DNA of 64,000 bases from Eledone cirrhosa (GCA_964016885.1 OZ024740.1:400396001-400460000); one strand, 5' to 3'; shown: positions 4,533-57,445, counted from the stretch's first letter. Translations and numbers: made by a program. The notes: generated by a model not told the origin, from the sequence alone.

Positions 4533-4906
4533 TATTAATAAAAGGAATTCCAACTTTGTCTGATTTACTCGTTTTATTTACAATCCTTTAAAATTTATAA
4601 TGGTATTAGAATGAAATAGTATGGTAGAATATTAAATGTTAAGAGTTAATTGATAAAGTACTTTCATGCTTTCGCAATCTTCAGGTTCATAATGTGTGGT
4701 GACAGTCAAGTTTGCAACAGTTGAAAATTGCAAACTTGACTGTCACCACACATTATGAACCTGAAGATTGCGAAAGCATGAAAGTACTTGTTCAATTAAC
4801 ACTTAACATTTAATATTCTACCATACTATTTCATTCTAATACCATTATATACTTTAAAGGATTGTAAATAAAACGAGTAAATCAGAGAAGGTTGGAATTC
4901 CTTTTA

Positions 4907-4912
<6 letters not shown>
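4533..4912. repeat. Fold-back element, ~185 bp arms with ~10 bp spacer, hammerhead in each arm
   Basis: taataaaaggaattccaac...gtcaagtttgcaa is mirrored by ttgcaaacttgac...gttggaattccttttatta with few mismatches. (TA)n follows. Confidence 0.92.
4756..4794 (+). ncRNA. Minimal hammerhead ribozyme (mirror copy on minus strand at ~4652-4690)
   Basis: tgaac-CTGAAGA-t-tgc-gaaa-gca-t-GAAA-gtac-TT-gttca. Palindromic stem III AGTACT; GNRA-capped stem II. Confidence 0.8.
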
Positions 4913-6011: not shown

Positions 6012-6052
6012 CGGTGCTGACGATAGCTAACAAGCTTGAAACTAGTACATCG
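6012..6052 (+). ncRNA. Minimal hammerhead ribozyme
   Basis: cggtg-CTGACGA-t-agct-aaca-agct-t-GAAA-ctag-TA-catcg. Palindromic stem III ACTAGT; GUA cleavage triplet. Confidence 0.85.
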
Positions 6053-15399: not shown

Positions 15400-16240
15400 T
15401 TTAGGTTAACAAGGGACGCGTTTAGACCTTAGGTAGATAGGCCAGTTTGAAAAATATATTGCAGTCGTCATTTCATGCCTCGAAAACTGGGGATAGGACT
15501 GCGGCCTGTCCTGGGGTGGATGCACAAAAATTGTGTATCTCGAGAATCGAAGGACAGTTCGCCGAAATCGAAGGACAGTATACCGTAACAATTAGAACCT
15601 GGAATATTACAACCCTTACAGGTAAGGAACAAATACTAGTGGATGAGTCTAGAAGCTACCTGTTAGATATAGTCGGGGTTTCCTCAACAAAGTTCCATGG
15701 CTCTAATACTGTAGATTTGGATGGAGGATGGAAAACCCACTATTCAGGTGTGGTACCAGAAATGACTGAACAGGCGGGAATAAGGATACTCACAAGACCG
15801 CGGTTGTCAGAATATGTTATGGATTGGATCCCATCGGAAGGGAGGATTTGCCTCTTACAGCTTTGGCTGAAAGATATGTTTCTGTGGGTGGTGCAAGTTT
15901 ATACACAAAACAAGGAGTCGGATTGCAGATCCTTCCTTGATGAAGTCACTGCTGCGTTAGATGTAGTTAAGACTGAGTCATATATCCTGATGAGAGATGT
16001 CAATGCACATGTTGGCACTGACCACCTGACGTGGAAAGGAGTGATTGGAAGGAAAGGCGACACCGATCCAAATACGAAGAGAGACCTTACTAGACTTCTG
16101 TTTTAGCAATGGACTCTCTATTATGAACACCTTCCAGCACAGAGACATCCATAAATATACATGGTATAAGGATAATCAGGAACAGAGATCAATATTTGAT
16201 TATATAATTGTATCTGATCTCTTCGATTCTAAGTTTTGAA
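15400..16240 (+). mobile_element. RTE-clade LINE, AP endonuclease domain (frameshifted)
   Basis: TWNITTLTGKEQILVDE...LDIVGVSST...YSGV...DVNAHVG, then LLDFCFSNGLSIMNTFQHRDIHKYTWY...DYIIVS. Confidence 0.9.
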
Positions 16241-16845: not shown

Positions 16846-17299
16846 GTATATATTTATATACTTACACATGAACTACTGACCAAATAAAATGTGGTATCAA
16901 TGGGTTAAAGACATCAGTCAAATCAATTAGTGGTGAAGGTGGTATATATATATATATATATATATATGCAAAAGTTCTATTTAAAATTGTTGGGATACAA
17001 CAAGTAAATATTTTTATAACTGATATAAAGCACTCGACAAGTTTTTGGAGTAGATATACGATATTAATAAATGGAAACTATATTTATAAAACCATATTTA
17101 TTTCATTATACATATTTCAGGGATACCACATTAAATTATGGTATGTCTTCATCAGACAAAATACAATATATAACAGTTTTACAAATAGCTTTGACGTACC
17201 CTTTTAAAATACAACCATTACTTTTGGAGGCTGTCTGGATAGTGATTTGTTTATATTATTTTAATAAGTCATAGTGTTAAGCACAATTAGAAACAGACG

Positions 17300-17689
17300 T
17301 TAAATAACAATTGCTTACCTAAAAATGTAGTGTACAATTGTAATGTTAAAACTAATTTAAATTCATTTAACTATGTTGGTTCCACCTCTACAGAATTTAA
17401 ATTTCGCTTCAATAATCATAAGAATTCTTTCACAGATCCAAACAAAAAATCTTCAACTTTGTTATCTAGGGACCTAAAACGAGATAATATTAAATATTCG
17501 ATGAATTGGAATATTATTTCATAAGCTACTCCTTTTAATTGCTCTTCAGAAAATTGTGATCTTTGTATTGAAGAAATATTCTTGATATTAAAGTCCAAAA
17601 ATTCCCTTAATTTAAGGAACAATTTATTCAGTTGCTGCAGGCATAGATTGAACTCAACGTTTAAATATAAATATAAATTTAAAATGTAG
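17300..17689 (+). pseudogene. GIY-YIG endonuclease domain of a Penelope-like element (probably Naiad-type)
   Basis: One frame reads LNNNCLPKNVVYNCNV...YVGSTSTEFKFRFNNHKNSF...STLLS...WNIIS*ATPF...CDLCIEE...LNLRNNLFSCCRH. This shows the VVY/YVG, R..NH, CxxC and CRH pattern of PLE GIY-YIG. One internal TAA. Confidence 0.82.
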
Positions 17690-18570
17690 TATAATTAATT
17701 AAGTAATTTAGTTAATATATGAAACCTGTCGATAATTCATTAGATTCCTTCACCTTTTTCTTTTTAAACTTTCTTCCTAAATATAAAAATGGATATAATA
17801 AACTACTCTAAAATGTCTATACTTCCAATGTGTTAAATAAAATATACGTAAGATAAATTTCTATACTAAATATAAGGTTATCTGTAGAATCATTGGGTTT
17901 TTTAAATCTTTTAAATTATTTTTATTTATTTGTTTTGATTCTGATAGCTTCTCATAACTTTCATAAGTCTACCCTTTCAATATCTTGATTGAGATATACG
18001 TAGGATAAATTTCTATACTAAATATATAAAACATATTATTTTAACTTAAGATACTCTATAGGCTTTTAAAGATATTTAATGCTTTGATATTTCTAGATTT
18101 CTTTTGACTCTACTGATATAGTTGTATTTCCAAAATATATTCCTTTGGTATTTTAAATTTATATTGTTATAGTTATATTTACAAGTTATAATCCTTTAGT
18201 AATATATTGATATTTGATTATCTCTATACAAATGCATATAAAGTGTTATAGGTTTTTTGTGTTTGTATATATGTCTGTATATATACATGAGCGATGCGGG
18301 AGGACGCACGCAAATATTTATTTATGCATATGTATGTATATATATCTATGTGGGTGAGAGCTATGTTGCAGATATGCATAATATTAAATACATGAATGGT
18401 AATCGTATATATGAGGACATGAATATTAATCGTATATATTTATGTATATATACTGTGAACTTTTTATAACACAAAGAATGTATATCAGTGATTAAGAGAA
18501 ATCATTTACGTTTTGTATGGCTATATTGTTGGCTTGAGTAAACATAATTTCTATTTTCAGGACGTGCGTA

Positions 18571-18601
<31 letters not shown>

Positions 18602-19218
18602 TTGTATGTCTTTGCATAAGATAATGATCTCTATAGCAAGGGTACATTTTGAATGATTTAACTCAGATTTCGGTATATTGATCTCAAGTATTTAAACTAA
18701 ACATATAGTCATTATTGAACAATGTTTAATTTCTCATATTATATATCTATGTCCCATTCATGAATATTGATATTTATATTTTTATTATTCTTTTCATATA
18801 AATTGTTAACTCAACTTAATATGACATGACGTAAAGTTTTCATTGTCTCCCCCTCTCTCTATATAGTCTATATAGTTCTCTCTCTTGAGTTTTTCTATCT
18901 GTATGATGACTTGATATCTCTCTGTTGCTTTCCTTTGTTTTTCTTATTTCTTCCTTTTTTCTTTCTTTTTTATTTCCTCCTATCTTTATTTATCTCTTTC
19001 TTTTCTCCATACATTTCTCTCTCCGATATTTTTCAAGGTTTTCTTTCTCTCTCTCCGTCTTTTTTCTTTTTTTCTTTCTCTCCGTCTTTTTCTAATTGTG
19101 CTTAACACTATGACTTATTAAAATAATATAAACAAATCACTATCCGGACAGCCTCCAAAAGTAGTGGTTGTATTTTAAAAGGGTACGTCAAAGCTATTTG
19201 TAAAACTGTTATATATTG

Positions 19219-19283
19219 TATTTTGTCTGATGAAGGCATACCATAATTTAATGTGGTATCCCTGAAATATGTATAATGAAATA
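19219..19283 (+). ncRNA. Hammerhead ribozyme in family A pseudo-LTR
   Basis: tattttgt-CTGATGA-agg.atacca...tggtat.cct-GAAA-tatgta-TA-atgaaata. 8-bp stem I with two G-U pairs. Homologous copies at ~17100-17165(-), ~28635-28700(-), ~47445-47510(+), ~55705-55770(-) and 55960-56024(+). Confidence 0.75.
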
Positions 19284-19323
19284 AATATGGTTTTATAAAT
19301 ATAGTTTCCATTTATTAATATCG

Positions 19324-19417
<94 letters not shown>

Positions 19418-21046: not shown

Positions 21047-21237
21047 AAGAACCAATAATGAATAAATGCAAAAACAAAGAGTACATATATGCAAAATGAT
21101 CCATATGATTGTCAATCTGTCCATGCATAGATCGAATTGAGGAGGCTTCTGTTCAAATGCGATTTGGTGCAGGGAAATGGATCATTTTGCATATATGTAC
21201 TCTGTGTTTTTGCATTTATTCATTATTGGTTCTTTTC
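21047..21237. repeat. Inverted repeat, ~57 bp arms, next to (TA)n
   Basis: aagaaccaataatgaataaatgcaaaaac...aatgatccat vs atggatcattttgc...ttattggttctt. Confidence 0.85.
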
Positions 21238-22175: not shown

Positions 22176-22978
22176 GCCAATGATTCTAAGTTTGAATCTA
22201 ACTGACATGAAAAAACATATATATAGGAATAATGTAGGCCCTAATCATACTAGATTCAAATATCATAAAGAGAGAGAGAGAGAGAGAGAGGGGAGAAGGA
22301 GGAAGGGGTGGGTGGGGATGTGGAGAAATGAGTTGCAACAGAAATGAAACATGGATTACAGGTTAAAATGTAGTCTAGACAGATGAGAAACGAAATGAGG
22401 ATGTATTTATGGAACACCCAAATGGTTTAGAAGTCGACCTTAAGTAGGGGCAATAACATTAAGAAAAACATGAATGACACAACAACACTTTGTTTAGAAA
22501 ATTTTGAAAGTAGTTTTATAAATATGAACTTTCATAAGATGTTTTTTTGTCTCTGTGGCCTAGCGGTAGGTACTAGAGACGGTGGAGATCCTGACCTTGG
22601 GTTCAATTCTGGTCAAGAGGTTCATGTAAACTTTTTCAGTTTTAATTTTACAACCAATAGAAAAAAACTGAAAATGTTTACTTGCGACTCTACTCCCGAC
22701 CAGGTTCGAACTCAGACCAGGACCACCACCGTCTATGATCCCTTGCACTAGGCTACCGAGACAGCTACAAAAGTACAATGAAAATTGATAATTATAAACC
22801 TACTTTCAATATCAAAGTTAAAAAGATTTGGTGTTGTTCATGGCTTTCCTGGAGCTATTAGTAATATTTTGCGTTGACTTGTCAATCTTCTGGGCCGTTG
22901 GTAACAACCTTATTATACATATGTGTGTTTAACGGTTGAATTAATTTAATTTGACTATTTTAGCAATAAATAAAAAAG

Positions 22979-23048
<70 letters not shown>

Positions 23049-23660
23049 GCCAATCATTGTAAGTTTGAATGTGACATGCAAAACATATATATGAATAAAG
23101 TAAGCCAAAATCATAGTAGATTCAAATATCACAGAGAAAAAACGAAAGAGGGGGGGGAGAAACGAGGTGCAACAGAAATGAAACATGGATTACAGGTTAA
23201 AATATAGTTTAGATATATGTGAAACAAAACGAGGTTGTATGGAACACTCAACTGATGTTATGGAACACTCAACTGATTTAGAAGTCGGCCTTAAGTAGGA
23301 GCAATAACATTAAGAAAAATATGAACGACACAACAACACTGTGAACATTTTGAAAGTAGGTTTATAAGTATGAATTTTCAGAAGATTTTCGTAGTTGACT
23401 CTGTGGCTTAACTGTAGGTAGGAGAGACGGTGGAGATCCTGGCCTTAGTTTCAACCCTGGTCAAGAGGTACATGTAAGCTTTTTCAGTTTTTATTTTACA
23501 AGCAATAGAAAAAACTGGAAAGGTTTACCGGGAACCCTACTCCCGACCAGGATCGAACTTCAGACCAGGAGCACCAAGTCTATGATTCCTCCAACTAGGC
23601 TACCGGGACAGCTACAAAAGTATAAAGAAAATTGATAATTATAAACCTATTCTGAAAAGT
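22152..23660 (+). repeat. Two diverged direct copies of a ~650 bp unit, each containing a pair of inverted tRNA-like motifs
   Basis: 22152-22810 aligns with 23045-23660. Each copy starts taatgccaat directly after (TA)n. Confidence 0.85.
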
Positions 23661-28200: not shown

Positions 28201-28399
28201 GGTAGGTCCCGGGTTGAGTCGGGGATAACCACAGTAAGTAAGGTACTCAACACATGGCAGAGTAAAATTTTTTTATTTTATAGAAGGAACTTCTACAGGA
28301 CTAGTACTGTTTCATTCAGATGAAATCTTCAGGAAGCGCTTCCTGAAGATTTCATCTGAATGAAACAGTACTAGTCCTGTAGAAGTTCCTTCTATAAAA
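28201..28399. mobile_element. Family C fold-back remnant
   Basis: ~75 bp tail plus perfect ~62 bp-arm palindrome centred at 28337/28338. Relatives at 25755-25890 and 32356-32525. Confidence 0.88.
28339..28385 (+). ncRNA. Hammerhead ribozyme (identical mirror copy on minus strand 28290-28336)
   Basis: cttc-CTGAAGA-t-ttc-atct-gaa-t-GAA-ACAG-tactagtc-CTGT-A-gaag. True hairpin stem III; GUA triplet. Confidence 0.8.
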
Positions 28400-28573: not shown

Positions 28574-28592
28574 ATACATATATATATATATA

Positions 28593-28906
28593 CGATATTA
28601 ATAAATGGAAACTATATTTATAAAACCATATTTATTTCATTATACATATTTCAGGGATACCAAATTAAATTATGGTATGCCTTCATCAGACAAAATACAA
28701 TATATAACAGTTTTACAAATAAGCTTTGACGTACCCTATTAAAATGCAACTATTTTTTTTGGAAGCCTTCCGGATAGTGAGTTGTTTATATTATTTTAAT
28801 AAGTCATAGTGTTAAGGACAATTAGAAAAAAATGGTTGCATTTTAATAGGGTACGTCAAATGAAATAAATATGGTTTTATAAATATAGTTTCCATTTATT
28901 AATATC

Positions 28907-28907
<1 letters not shown>
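28593..28907. mobile_element. Family A fold-back remnant (right arm internally deleted)
   Basis: Homologous to 17059-17290, followed by partial inverted copy 28835-28907. (TA)n flanks. Confidence 0.85.
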
Positions 28908-28949
<42 letters not shown>

Positions 28950-29173: not shown

Positions 29174-29543
<370 letters not shown>

Positions 29544-30794: not shown

Positions 30795-31018
30795 GGTTAT
30801 GCTTTGGGAAGGTCATGTTGCCAATAAGAAACACACGCACCTGTGCTTTCACTCCAATTTATTATAAATAAAATTTATAAATTTAATTTATAATAAATTG
30901 GAGTGAAACAACTGGTGCGTGTGTTTCTTATTGGCAACATGACCCTCCCAAAGCATAACAATATCGGTTTCAACACACGTTTTCAGATAAAGAATCTTGC
31001 TAAACAAATTCAGAAACG

Positions 31019-33397: not shown

Positions 33398-33398
33398 A

Positions 33399-33830
33399 GA
33401 TATTAGTATTGGTGCTCTGAAATAGCGATGTATACATGAATGTTTGTATAGTATATTTGGCAATAGTGTATGTTTAAGTAAAAATATTTTGAAGATCATT
33501 CGCTATGAGCTTTAAAGTAGTGACTTATTCTCGGCAAAAGCAAAAGAGAGTGATTGACAGTCCTGTTTCTCGCTCGTTAGCGTTTATCAAGACCACTCAC
33601 TCCTTCACTTCTGTCGAAAGTTATAGAAGCTGGATTCTTATAGAATACCAGTAATATTTAAGAGCTGATTAAACAGACCGGTTGCTGGCCTTCAAAATAT
33701 TTTTACTTAAACATACACTATATTGCCAAATATATTATACATACATTCATGTATACATCGCTATTTCAGAGCACCAATACTAATACCTAATTTTTTCTGG
33801 ACCGGCAACCGCTGTTTAATCAGCTCTTTA
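33399..33830. repeat. Interleaved inverted repeats
   Basis: 33402-33494 is the inverse of 33690-33786. 33660-33688 is approximately the inverse of 33802-33829. Confidence 0.85.
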
Positions 33831-37257: not shown

Positions 37258-37690
37258 AATATAATATATTAACAAATGGAAACTATATTTATAAAACCAT
37301 ATTTATTACATTATACATATTTCAAGGACACCAAAGCAAATTATGGTGCGCTTTCATCATATAAAATATAATATAGATCAGTTTTATAAACAAATATTGA
37401 CATACCCTTAAAGAATGCGACCATGTCGCTTCCAACCGACGTGGTCGCATTCTTTAAGGGTATGTCAATATTTGTTTATAAAACTGATCTATATTATATT
37501 TTATATGATGAAAGCGCACCATAATTTGCTTTGGTGTCCTTGAAATATGTATAATGTAATAAATATGGTTTTATAAATATAGTTTCCATTTGTTAATATA
37601 TTGTATTTTTACTCCAATAATTTGTTGAGTGCTTTATATCAGTTATAAAAATATTTGCTTGTTGTATCCCAACAATTTAAATAGAACTTC

Positions 37691-47229: not shown

Positions 47230-47549
47230 GCAAAAGTTTTATTTAAAATTGTTGGGTTACAACGAGTAAATATTTTTTAACTGATATAAAGCACTCAACA
47301 AGTTTTGGAGTAGATATACGATATTAAACAAATGGAAACTATATTTATAAAACCATATTTATTTCATTATACATATTTCAGGGATATTTATAAGGATATT
47401 TATAAATATTTATAAGGATATTTATAAAACTGCTTATATATTGTATTTTATCTGAAGAAGGCATGCCATATTTTTAATATGGTATCCCTGAAATATGTAT
47501 AATGAAATAAATATGATTTTATAAATATAGTTTCCATTTGTTTAATATC

Positions 47550-47553
<4 letters not shown>
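47230..47553. mobile_element. Family A fold-back remnant, tail on left
   Basis: gcaaaagttttatttaaaattgttggg... arm, scrambled junction of repeated gatatttataa, inverted arm ending atatcg(TA)n. Confidence 0.88.
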
Positions 47554-47588
<35 letters not shown>

Positions 47589-55621: not shown

Positions 55622-55663
<42 letters not shown>

Positions 55664-55664
<1 letters not shown>

Positions 55665-56156
55665 GATATTAAATAAATGGAAACTATATTTATAAAACCA
55701 TACTTATTTCATTATACATATTTCAGGGATACCAAATAAAAAAATGGTATACCTTCATCAGACAAAATACAATATATAAACAGTTTTATAAATAATTTTG
55801 ACGTACCCTATTAGAAGCGACCATTACTTTTGGAAGCTGTCTGGATAGTGATACGTTTATAATTATTTATAAACATATCAATATCCAGACAGCTTCCAAA
55901 AGTAATGGTCGCTTCTCATAGGGTACGTCAAAATTATTTATAAAACTGTTTATATATTGTATTTTGTCTGATGAAGGCATACCATTTTTTAATTTAGTAT
56001 CCCTGAAATATGTATAAGGAAATAAATATGGTTTTATAAATATAGCTTCCATTTATTTAATATCGTATATCTACTCCAAAAACTTGTCGAGTGCTTTATA
56101 TCAGTTATAAAATATTTACTTGTTGCATCCCAACAATTTTAAATAAAACTTTTGCA
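55664..56156. mobile_element. Family A fold-back remnant, tail on right
   Basis: ~200 bp inverted arms (55664-55865 / 55868-56068) plus tail to ...aacttttgca(TA)n. Confidence 0.9.
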
Positions 56157-56970: not shown

Positions 56971-57445
56971 AGTAGCGAGTAGGTAACAAGTATCCATAGT
57001 TGCCAGAAAACTTAGGCTGACGGACGAGTTGTGATGTACAATTATTTTAAATCACTACAAAAATGATATAACACAAATTTGGATACAGTAAGAGAGACGA
57101 CTGTAGTATAATTTAATAATGGTGGATTGTTATTGTACAGAGAAATAATCAAAGTTATTGGGGAATCAGTCCAATAGCTTTAGTTCGGCCGCGACCTATT
57201 CTTCTAAATGAAATTGTTTTATGTGGGCAGCAGTTGAAGCAAGCATAGCGGGTATTCAATTTTCTCTTACTGGAAGGCATGTTTCTAAGTATATTCAGGC
57301 TTTCATCTTTGCATAAATAACAGTTCATCGATCTAAGTTTGATGATACTACGAGTGGGCAGGTAACATTTCAGTGTAACACGGCTTACAGCATACCCATT
57401 AAATAAAATTGATGACTTTTTCTGATGTCCGTCAATGATACACGG

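Follow-up and report, generated by a model that had tools for sequence, protein, structure and literature searches.

Among described systems, those closest to the locus reported here are the Hydra-clade PLEs, represented in our comparison by Hydra-1/2_Amil, Hydra-1/2_Ajap, Hydra-1_Obim, Hydra-1_Crog and Penelope-n_HM/NV/SK (PMC8557442). Elements of this clade carry a C-terminal GIY-YIG endonuclease that lacks CCHH and in which CxxC and CxH flank the E and N, and they are further marked by CxCX5C, RWK, DKT, a hammerhead and (TA)n targets; for one of them, Penelope-13_HM, the annotation includes an inverted copy, itself 5'-truncated, at the 5' end (PMC8557442). Naiads are defined by an N-terminal endonuclease with CCHH and by the absence of a canonical hammerhead, with two cysteines between GIY and YIG, CX2-5CxxC and, in some, selenocysteine; they too prefer (TA)n and show inverted 5'-truncated copies and a tail (PMC8557442). 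An inverted 5'-truncated copy with a one-sided tail is standard PLE anatomy (PMC8557442; PMC3846280). In rotifers, Pen1_Av (Adineta vaga) has a 3' pLTR set off from the ORF by unique spacers of 0.9–1.5 kb, ascribed to host capture, and Pen2_Av is a 5'-truncated copy with an in-frame stop, inverted pLTR flanks and an optional tail (PMC3846280). Poseidon PAc (Anolis carolinensis) combines an AT-rich target and an upstream hammerhead with two RT start sites that bound an optional tail (PMC11167929), and non-LTR retrozymes are non-coding, with type I hammerheads from PLE ends (bioRxiv 10.64898/2026.07.22.740005).

We analysed a 64,000-nt stretch of Eledone cirrhosa DNA (GCA_964016885.1 OZ024740.1:400396001-400460000; the window), which is AT-rich with microsatellites throughout and resembles an animal genome. 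At 16968-19323 it holds the remains of what is almost certainly a Hydra-clade PLE. With the Hydra-clade PLEs this locus shares a C-terminal GIY-YIG endonuclease without CCHH, CxxC and CxH around E and N, a predicted canonical hammerhead near the 3' end and a (TA)n target, and it has an inverted copy like that of Penelope-13_HM. It differs from its Hydra relatives in the length of its tail (86–91 nt, reaching 68 nt past a bipartite motif described below, as against 37–45), in the form of that motif (ACTC..GAGTGCT), in a stop-to-hammerhead distance of 1538 nt and in retaining only the last 129 codons, with a stop among them; by eye, its hammerhead sequence is unlike any in File S2 of PMC8557442. 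It resembles Pen1_Av in its spacer and Pen2_Av in its truncation, in-frame stop, inverted flanks and tail, but the rotifer elements have ORFs of ~830 aa, a 31-bp tail and a pLTR that includes the ORF start, and the pLTRs of Pen1_Av are mostly direct (PMC3846280). Poseidon PAc is like the locus in its target and hammerhead, and like the mechanism that we propose below in its paired start sites, but it belongs to the Penelope/Poseidon clade and has its start sites within the ORF, in an AC-rich stem-loop (PMC11167929), whereas the tail at our locus is non-coding and longer. Like retrozymes, the fold-back units of the family to which the locus belongs, here called family A, are non-coding and have type I hammerheads from PLE ends; we rejected a retrozyme reading, however, because retrozymes are head-to-tail tandems (bioRxiv 10.64898/2026.07.22.740005) and all five family A loci in the window are head-to-head. 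Family A is new as a family, but its clade and its layout are both known, and it is ordinary apart from its spacer and its tail motif.

Both outer ends of the locus lie within (TA)n, at 16943..16967 on the left and 19324..19414 on the right. Reading inward from the left, an optional tail (16968..17053, minus strand), the long 3' end that has no counterpart in the sense arm, leads into an inverted 5'-truncated copy of the element's 3' end, the inverted pLTR arm (17054..17299, minus). There follow the 5'-truncated, inactivated Hydra-type endonuclease, which is the C-terminal end of the ORF (17300..17689, plus), an AT-rich non-coding spacer of 1393 nt (17690..19082, plus) and the sense arm, which is the main copy's 3' end in its short form (19083..19328, plus) and whose last 5 nt, TATAT, overlap the target. 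That overlap sets the range given for the tail, since the inverted arm extends to 16968, 86–91 nt beyond the sense arm; with BLAST end points the tail is 83 nt. BLAST aligns 17051-17299 (minus) with 19083-19331 (plus) over 249 nt at 98.0% identity (E 5e-121), and the inverted and sense arms are identical at 239 of 243 positions (98.4%). The earlier note on this DNA had placed the end of the inverted arm at 17299 and the start of a GIY-YIG frame at 17300, followed by about 1.4 kb of AT-rich non-coding DNA and a sense arm with a hammerhead on the coding strand, and all of this holds: arm and frame meet flush, with neither gap nor overlap. Within the window, a family A arm is joined to this endonuclease at this one locus. 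Seven sequencing runs contain part of 16968-18250 (best share 0.51), with no RNA run among those listed, and a 26-nt family A motif had no match in the metagenome contigs searched.

The frame from 17300 reads LNNNCLPKNVVY..YVG..CDLC..E..LN..CRH, with VVY at 17327-17335, YVG at 17372-17380, CxxC at 17555-17566, the catalytic E at 17573-17575, the catalytic N at 17609-17611 and CRH at 17636-17644, and it terminates at a TAG (17687-17689), all on the plus strand. It is interrupted by a TAA at 17522-17524, the sole in-frame stop before the TAG, which the earlier note did not mention; the column is mostly R or K in homologs and is not a selenocysteine site. What remains of the ORF is thus its last 129 codons, interrupted by a stop. 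Three residues are missing after position 57, a conserved W among them, and two after position 99; both deletions are small and in-frame, and several consensus residues have been lost as well. This copy of the endonuclease is dead, its frame broken. The damage is more than the 1.6% divergence of the arms would lead one to expect, so the template was probably defective already. The residues that define the enzyme nevertheless persist: Y12, Y25, G27, R36, H40, E92 and N104 are all present, each at least 90% conserved in an 86-sequence alignment, giving the GIY and YIG motifs and the catalytic R, H, E and N that a GIY-YIG endonuclease requires. C86, C89, C113 and H115 are present too, and a single cysteine lies between VVY and YVG.

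The Pfam profile PF01541 (GIY-YIG) matches weakly, at 15.8 bits against a curated cut-off of 22.6, and that cut-off was reached by none of ten homologs, RT-linked ones included. An AlphaFold model of the endonuclease (pLDDT 90.3) superimposes on I-TevI with Z 8.2 and an rmsd of 2.3 over 86 aligned residues, and T4 EndoII (Z 6.6) and the UvrC N-terminal domain (Z 5.4) are also among the top four structural matches, so that the protein, as modelled, would have the GIY-YIG fold. A Foldseek search with the model returned nothing at E<=0.001, the best match being I-TevI at E 0.06, and the one match in a sequence search of the PDB (E 0.62) was dismissed as chance. By phmmer, the peptide has 2844 relatives at E<=1e-3 (best 3.6e-20); none was found in viral contigs. 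Together with homologs in which RT precedes endonuclease, the clade motifs and the I-TevI-like model, these relatives bear out a PLE as the parent, as the earlier note had supposed.

That note had gone on to call the parent a probable Naiad, on the strength of a CLxxxVVY/CxxC/CRH pattern, and had raised the possibility of a selenoprotein; C-terminal CxxC and CxH are, as described in PMC8557442, marks of the Hydra clade. We examined 151 homologs, namely the best 150 of the 2844 relatives and one further sequence, P0002. CxxC..E is found in 148 of them and LN..CxH in 121, and a median of 14 residues follows CxH, the same number of codons as precedes the stop at our locus. RT and YIG motifs are both visible in nine, and in all nine RT comes before the endonuclease, with RT downstream in none of this unbiased set. 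Among 96 related loci (the best 80 of 370 metagenome matches plus 16 from genome contigs), the peptide matches 88: in 65 of these the same ORF has RT upstream, in none is RT downstream and in 23 it was not seen; CxCX5C is found in 77 of the 88, DKT in 39 and RWK/RWR in 38. These loci were retrieved using RT patterns, so they confirm the order of the domains, not the frequency of their linkage. At our locus the CxCX5C linker, RWK and DKT are absent by truncation, and no match to this family's RT was found within the window. Every Hydra mark that could outlast the truncation is there: the endonuclease is C-terminal and lacks CCHH, its E and N have CxxC and CxH on either side, a canonical hammerhead is predicted near the 3' end, and (TA)n lies at both ends of all five loci. 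The Naiad reading can point to the (TA)n target and inverted 5' copy that Naiads also have (PMC8557442) and to a weak SECIS_1 match over the hammerhead, but this scores 14.8 bits against a cut-off of 35 (E 2.9) and probably reflects the hammerhead's own AUGA..GA. None of the Naiad-defining features that could be tested is found here. The endonuclease is C-terminal, with a stop and non-coding DNA downstream; CCHH is missing; a canonical hammerhead is predicted; and CxxC stands between GIY and YIG in none of 106 sequences with a scorable GIY..YIG, the query included. The selenoprotein idea is without support because 17300-17689, the part of the ORF that remains, has no in-frame TGA: its remaining conserved cysteines are TGY and its internal stop is TAA. 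We give the Naiad reading next to no credence. Hydra-type PLE sequences also occur in genomes and MAGs labelled as bacterial (L081-L096 and P0002); these records are likely to be eukaryotic contamination, which has been noted for other PLEs (PMC8557442).

The spacer is where the locus departs most from its relatives. The 1538 nt between stop and hammerhead core compare with a median of 152 and a maximum of 515 in relatives (n=55 with a core); these come from 73 distinct endonuclease ends, of which 15 have less than 600 nt of DNA and three lack a core by pattern. Two ends without a full core (L031 and L061) have, by eye, its first half 76–103 nt after the stop. The earlier note's description of an unusually long 3' region therefore stands as a measurement; given the precedents of Pen1_Av (PMC3846280) and of one relative, L073, it is unusual but not new. 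The sequence itself is AT-rich with microsatellite-like patches, its last 240 nt are pyrimidine-rich (an 83% pyrimidine block at the end), and a 60-nt direct repeat lies inside it (17815-17874 and 17967-18026, 83%). We found no hammerhead, tail motif or coding match in it, its frames being low-complexity, and no second copy in the window; pieces of it matched the window and the 96 related loci only in a microsatellite-like way. Its host-like content and the published precedent (PMC3846280) lead us to favour capture, and the spacer is likely to be host DNA that the parent copy took up between its gene and its hammerhead end.

Two other origins for the spacer deserve weighing. It could be a native 3' UTR, which would make family A a Hydra lineage of ~3.8 kb with a 1.6-kb 3' region. 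L073 has just this form: its 803-aa Hydra-type ORF is intact and is separated by 1637 non-coding nt from a hammerhead variant, with (TA)n 45 nt after GAAA, a short-end distance. The pyrimidine-rich end of our spacer recalls T-rich sequence before the hammerhead in Hydra-1_Crog (by eye), no remnant of a hammerhead or tail was found closer to the stop, and short metagenome contigs work against seeing long 3' regions, 15 of the 73 ends having too little DNA. Yet the core lies within 315 nt in 20 of the 21 relative ends that have at least 1600 nt of DNA, L073 being the exception, published Hydra consensi are shorter than ~3 kb (PMC8557442), and the host-like microsatellite patches and lack of a second copy in the window fit a native UTR poorly, so that we consider this origin unlikely. 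We regard as more improbable still a chimera, in which the endonuclease of another Hydra family would have been transcribed by read-through, the RNA crossing host DNA to reach the end of a family A element and then being copied through family A's cis signals. The ends of PLEs are able to move sequence unrelated to them in trans (PMC3846280; PMC6431247), and besides family A the window has hammerhead fold-backs of several further families, as well as a second Hydra endonuclease that has decayed; the damage to the frame, with its two small in-frame deletions and lost consensus residues, also exceeds the divergence of the arms, but a defective family A copy moved in trans would explain that equally well. 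A chimera requires an additional step, and no remnant of another family's hammerhead or tail follows the stop. Among the ends surveyed, that of L019 had seemed to be a long 3' region of 1594 nt but was rejected, as it comprises two tandem copies with a true distance of 146 nt. L073 is of interest for two further features: its hammerhead core (L073:4051-4080) reads G3..C8 by eye, like a natural C3G/G8C rescue pair, and its RT-endonuclease linker is expanded.

At the 3' end of the sense arm, the sequence predicts a canonical type I hammerhead (19219..19283, plus), with stem I formed by 19219-19226 and 19276-19283, the core CUGAUGA at 19227 and GAAA; core and stems I-III span 19227-19275, with predicted cleavage after 19275. 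The short stem III is self-complementary, a feature described for PLE hammerheads that are thought to be active as dimers (PMC4209133), and the layout is that of the Hydra hammerheads in File S2 of PMC8557442. The inverted arm carries a copy (17107..17155, minus) that has an intact core but has lost one stem II pair and was missed by our descriptor. Across the window that descriptor had eight matches, whereas 100 shuffles averaged 0.13, with a maximum of 1. Rfam reported no hammerhead in the window at gathering level or at E<=10, and the Rfam matches that it did give there were rejected as microsatellite artefacts. Folding of the hammerhead region is no more stable than that of shuffles (z -1.1), and the structure of lowest energy predicted for it differs from the hammerhead. 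We also rejected GAAAC-CT-GTC near 17722, which resembles the 3' half of a hammerhead but lacks a 5' core.

The other four family A loci, like this one, are single head-to-head pairs. At 28585-28915 both arms are short-ended, there is no tail and the right arm is internally deleted; 37259-37689 belongs to a diverged subfamily, with the tail on the right arm and position C3 of the hammerhead core changed; 47230-47558 has its tail on the left arm; and 55656-56155 has its tail on the right arm, with arms identical at 191 of 200 positions. A tail is thus found on one arm at four of the five loci. Arm identity within a locus ranges from 95.5 to 100%: the arms of our locus match at 98.4%, as against 78–95% to other family A loci over overlaps of more than 130 nt, and the 37259-37689 locus, at 78–84% to the others over longer overlaps, has arms identical at 162 of 164 positions. 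Because arms are more alike within loci than between them, we read each locus as the product of one event, and both copies at our locus probably arose in a single insertion; gene conversion could also account for the high identity. The earlier note had seen the same layout at these four loci, in a truncation series that shrinks the middle to nothing. The head-to-head arms are indeed common to all, apart from the arm deletion and missing tail at 28.6 kb, and there is a series in the sense of independent 5' truncations at insertion, but the 5' ends are individual to each arm, and these loci are therefore not deleted versions of the 17-kb one. Inverted repeats of one sort or another occur in 21 of the 96 related loci, and L089 shares the build seen here, an inverted copy with a tail, which in its case is ~65 nt long.

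Within the tail lies the bipartite motif ACTC-N12-GAGTGCT (17029..17051, minus), 79 nt after the hammerhead GAAA, and in family A ACTC..GAGTGCT sits 79–81 nt past GAAA. Relatives have GCTC-N10-17-GAGCACT at the same distance. GAGYRCT is found in 29 of 44 distinct regions behind relatives' hammerheads, 27 times at 65–95 nt after GAAA, as against none of 44 ORF regions and a shuffle mean of 1.2, and a complementary 4-mer stands 10–17 nt upstream of it in 31 of 32 cases. In a tail alignment of 40 rows (32 chosen by motif, 4 added by eye and 4 from the window), the two halves pair in 96% of cells, compared with 10–49% when slid. The four double changes in this alignment are all from family A and so count as one event, and RNAalifold gave no consensus pairs in the motif, which makes a DNA inverted repeat as possible as an RNA hairpin. 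The position of the motif and its distance from the hammerhead mark the arm as Hydra-type independently of the protein. In the window, the bipartite motif has eight matches (shuffle mean 0.35), all in family A or in a fourth family whose short (TA)n-joined ends carry ACTC..GAGTACT (5329, 6804, 29335 and 52292, all minus).

The motif falls between two alternative 3' ends. Relatives join microsatellites either 42–59 nt after GAAA (nine ends, one of which, in L036, is by eye an internal TA run) or 90–132 nt after it (nine ends), and the motif is confined to the long class; at four of the five family A loci, one arm ends ~57–63 nt after GAAA and the other at ~147 nt. By eye, the motif also occurs twice, ~55–75 nt apart, behind the hammerhead in L012, L017, L024, L030, L032, L043, L080, L085, L087 and L088. 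Among published consensi (PMC8557442), we see it by eye in Hydra-2_Amil and Hydra-2_Ajap and twice at the 5' end of Hydra-1_Ajap, a position consistent with the tail representing the beginning of a following tandem unit. The motif goes unmentioned in the main text of PMC8557442, and we found no description of it in the literature searched, which was largely open-access. The motif likely marks where copying starts. Going further, we propose tentatively that RCTC-N10-17-GAGYRCT, ~75 nt behind the hammerhead, may be a clade-wide and apparently undescribed Hydra cis element that docks the RT-endonuclease and sets two start sites; on this same tentative reading, one site would lie just before the motif and the other 40–70 nt after it.

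For the locus as a whole, the account that we somewhat favour joins a Hydra PLE parent, capture of the spacer and priming at both ends of a cut target. An intact RT-endonuclease made elsewhere would have cut both strands of a palindromic (TA)n, and each DNA end would have primed reverse transcription on family A RNA, one start being at the short site ~57 nt after GAAA and the other at the long site ~147 nt after it, with the motif between them. One cDNA may have run for ~2 kb, through the spacer into the endonuclease, and the other for 332 nt, after which the unfinished ends would have been joined at 17299/17300; at the other four loci, the same event would have ended with both cDNAs halted within ~250 nt. 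Two-ended cutting and priming are suggested here by analogy with PLE biochemistry: a purified PLE, its protein of the Poseidon clade and not Hydra, cleaves AT-rich DNA on both strands, extends both, and begins copying at two sites on the RNA between which the tail lies (PMC11167929). An alternative with the same parent, which we consider less likely but a serious rival, is that the inverted arm arose by self-priming or by a one-strand fold-back, and that trimming by the endonuclease left the one-sided tail. Self-priming on an antisense template has been proposed (PMC3846280), tails have been ascribed to endonuclease-mediated resolution (PMC8557442), and the junctions at 37.4 and 55.9 kb are near-palindromic. 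At the 17-kb locus, however, each arm has sequence missing from the other, and a target-primed cDNA folding back on itself could not gain a tail from beyond the point where it began, and yet it is the more truncated arm that bears the tail at three of the four tailed loci. A simple target-primed fold-back is therefore insufficient, and such a model would work only with later trimming or an antisense template.

Other parts of the window hold related material. A second hammerhead fold-back family lies between (TA)n runs at 4535-4910, its head-to-head arms 94% identical and each with a CUGAAGA core and a short stem II; a third (28276-28399) is a perfect 124-nt fold-back whose two arms each carry a hammerhead; and a lone hammerhead with a CUGACGA core (6017-6047, plus) sits in a short insert between microsatellites. 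Around 57150-57400 (minus) lies the C-terminus of a second Hydra-type endonuclease, in a much more advanced state of decay (CYLC..E..LN..CPH; only a profile matches, and weakly, at E 0.03–0.06). At 15441-16106 (plus), a stop-free frame of 221 codons looks like a piece of a LINE AP-endonuclease. Other fold-back or inverted pairs lie at 21047-21234, 22501-22812, 23348-23658, 29364-29485, 30796-30959 and 33398-33788; scans of all of these except 23348-23658 found no hammerhead core.

Taken by itself, the locus carries little weight, being dead repeat DNA of a described clade and layout, but it gives a Hydra-clade PLE parent to five hammerhead fold-backs in the window that would otherwise be anonymous. 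The part worth keeping is the tail motif with its two classes of 3' end, which can serve as a DNA tag for Hydra-clade ends that lack an ORF. How PLEs form inverted ends and one-sided tails is left open in PMC8557442 and PMC11167929, and a motif with a natural double change offers a target for mutagenesis. If our reading of the motif is true, priming of both ends of a cut (TA)n at those sites would yield fold-backs with one-sided tails, and any RNA ending in a hammerhead and this motif could carry kilobases of upstream host DNA.
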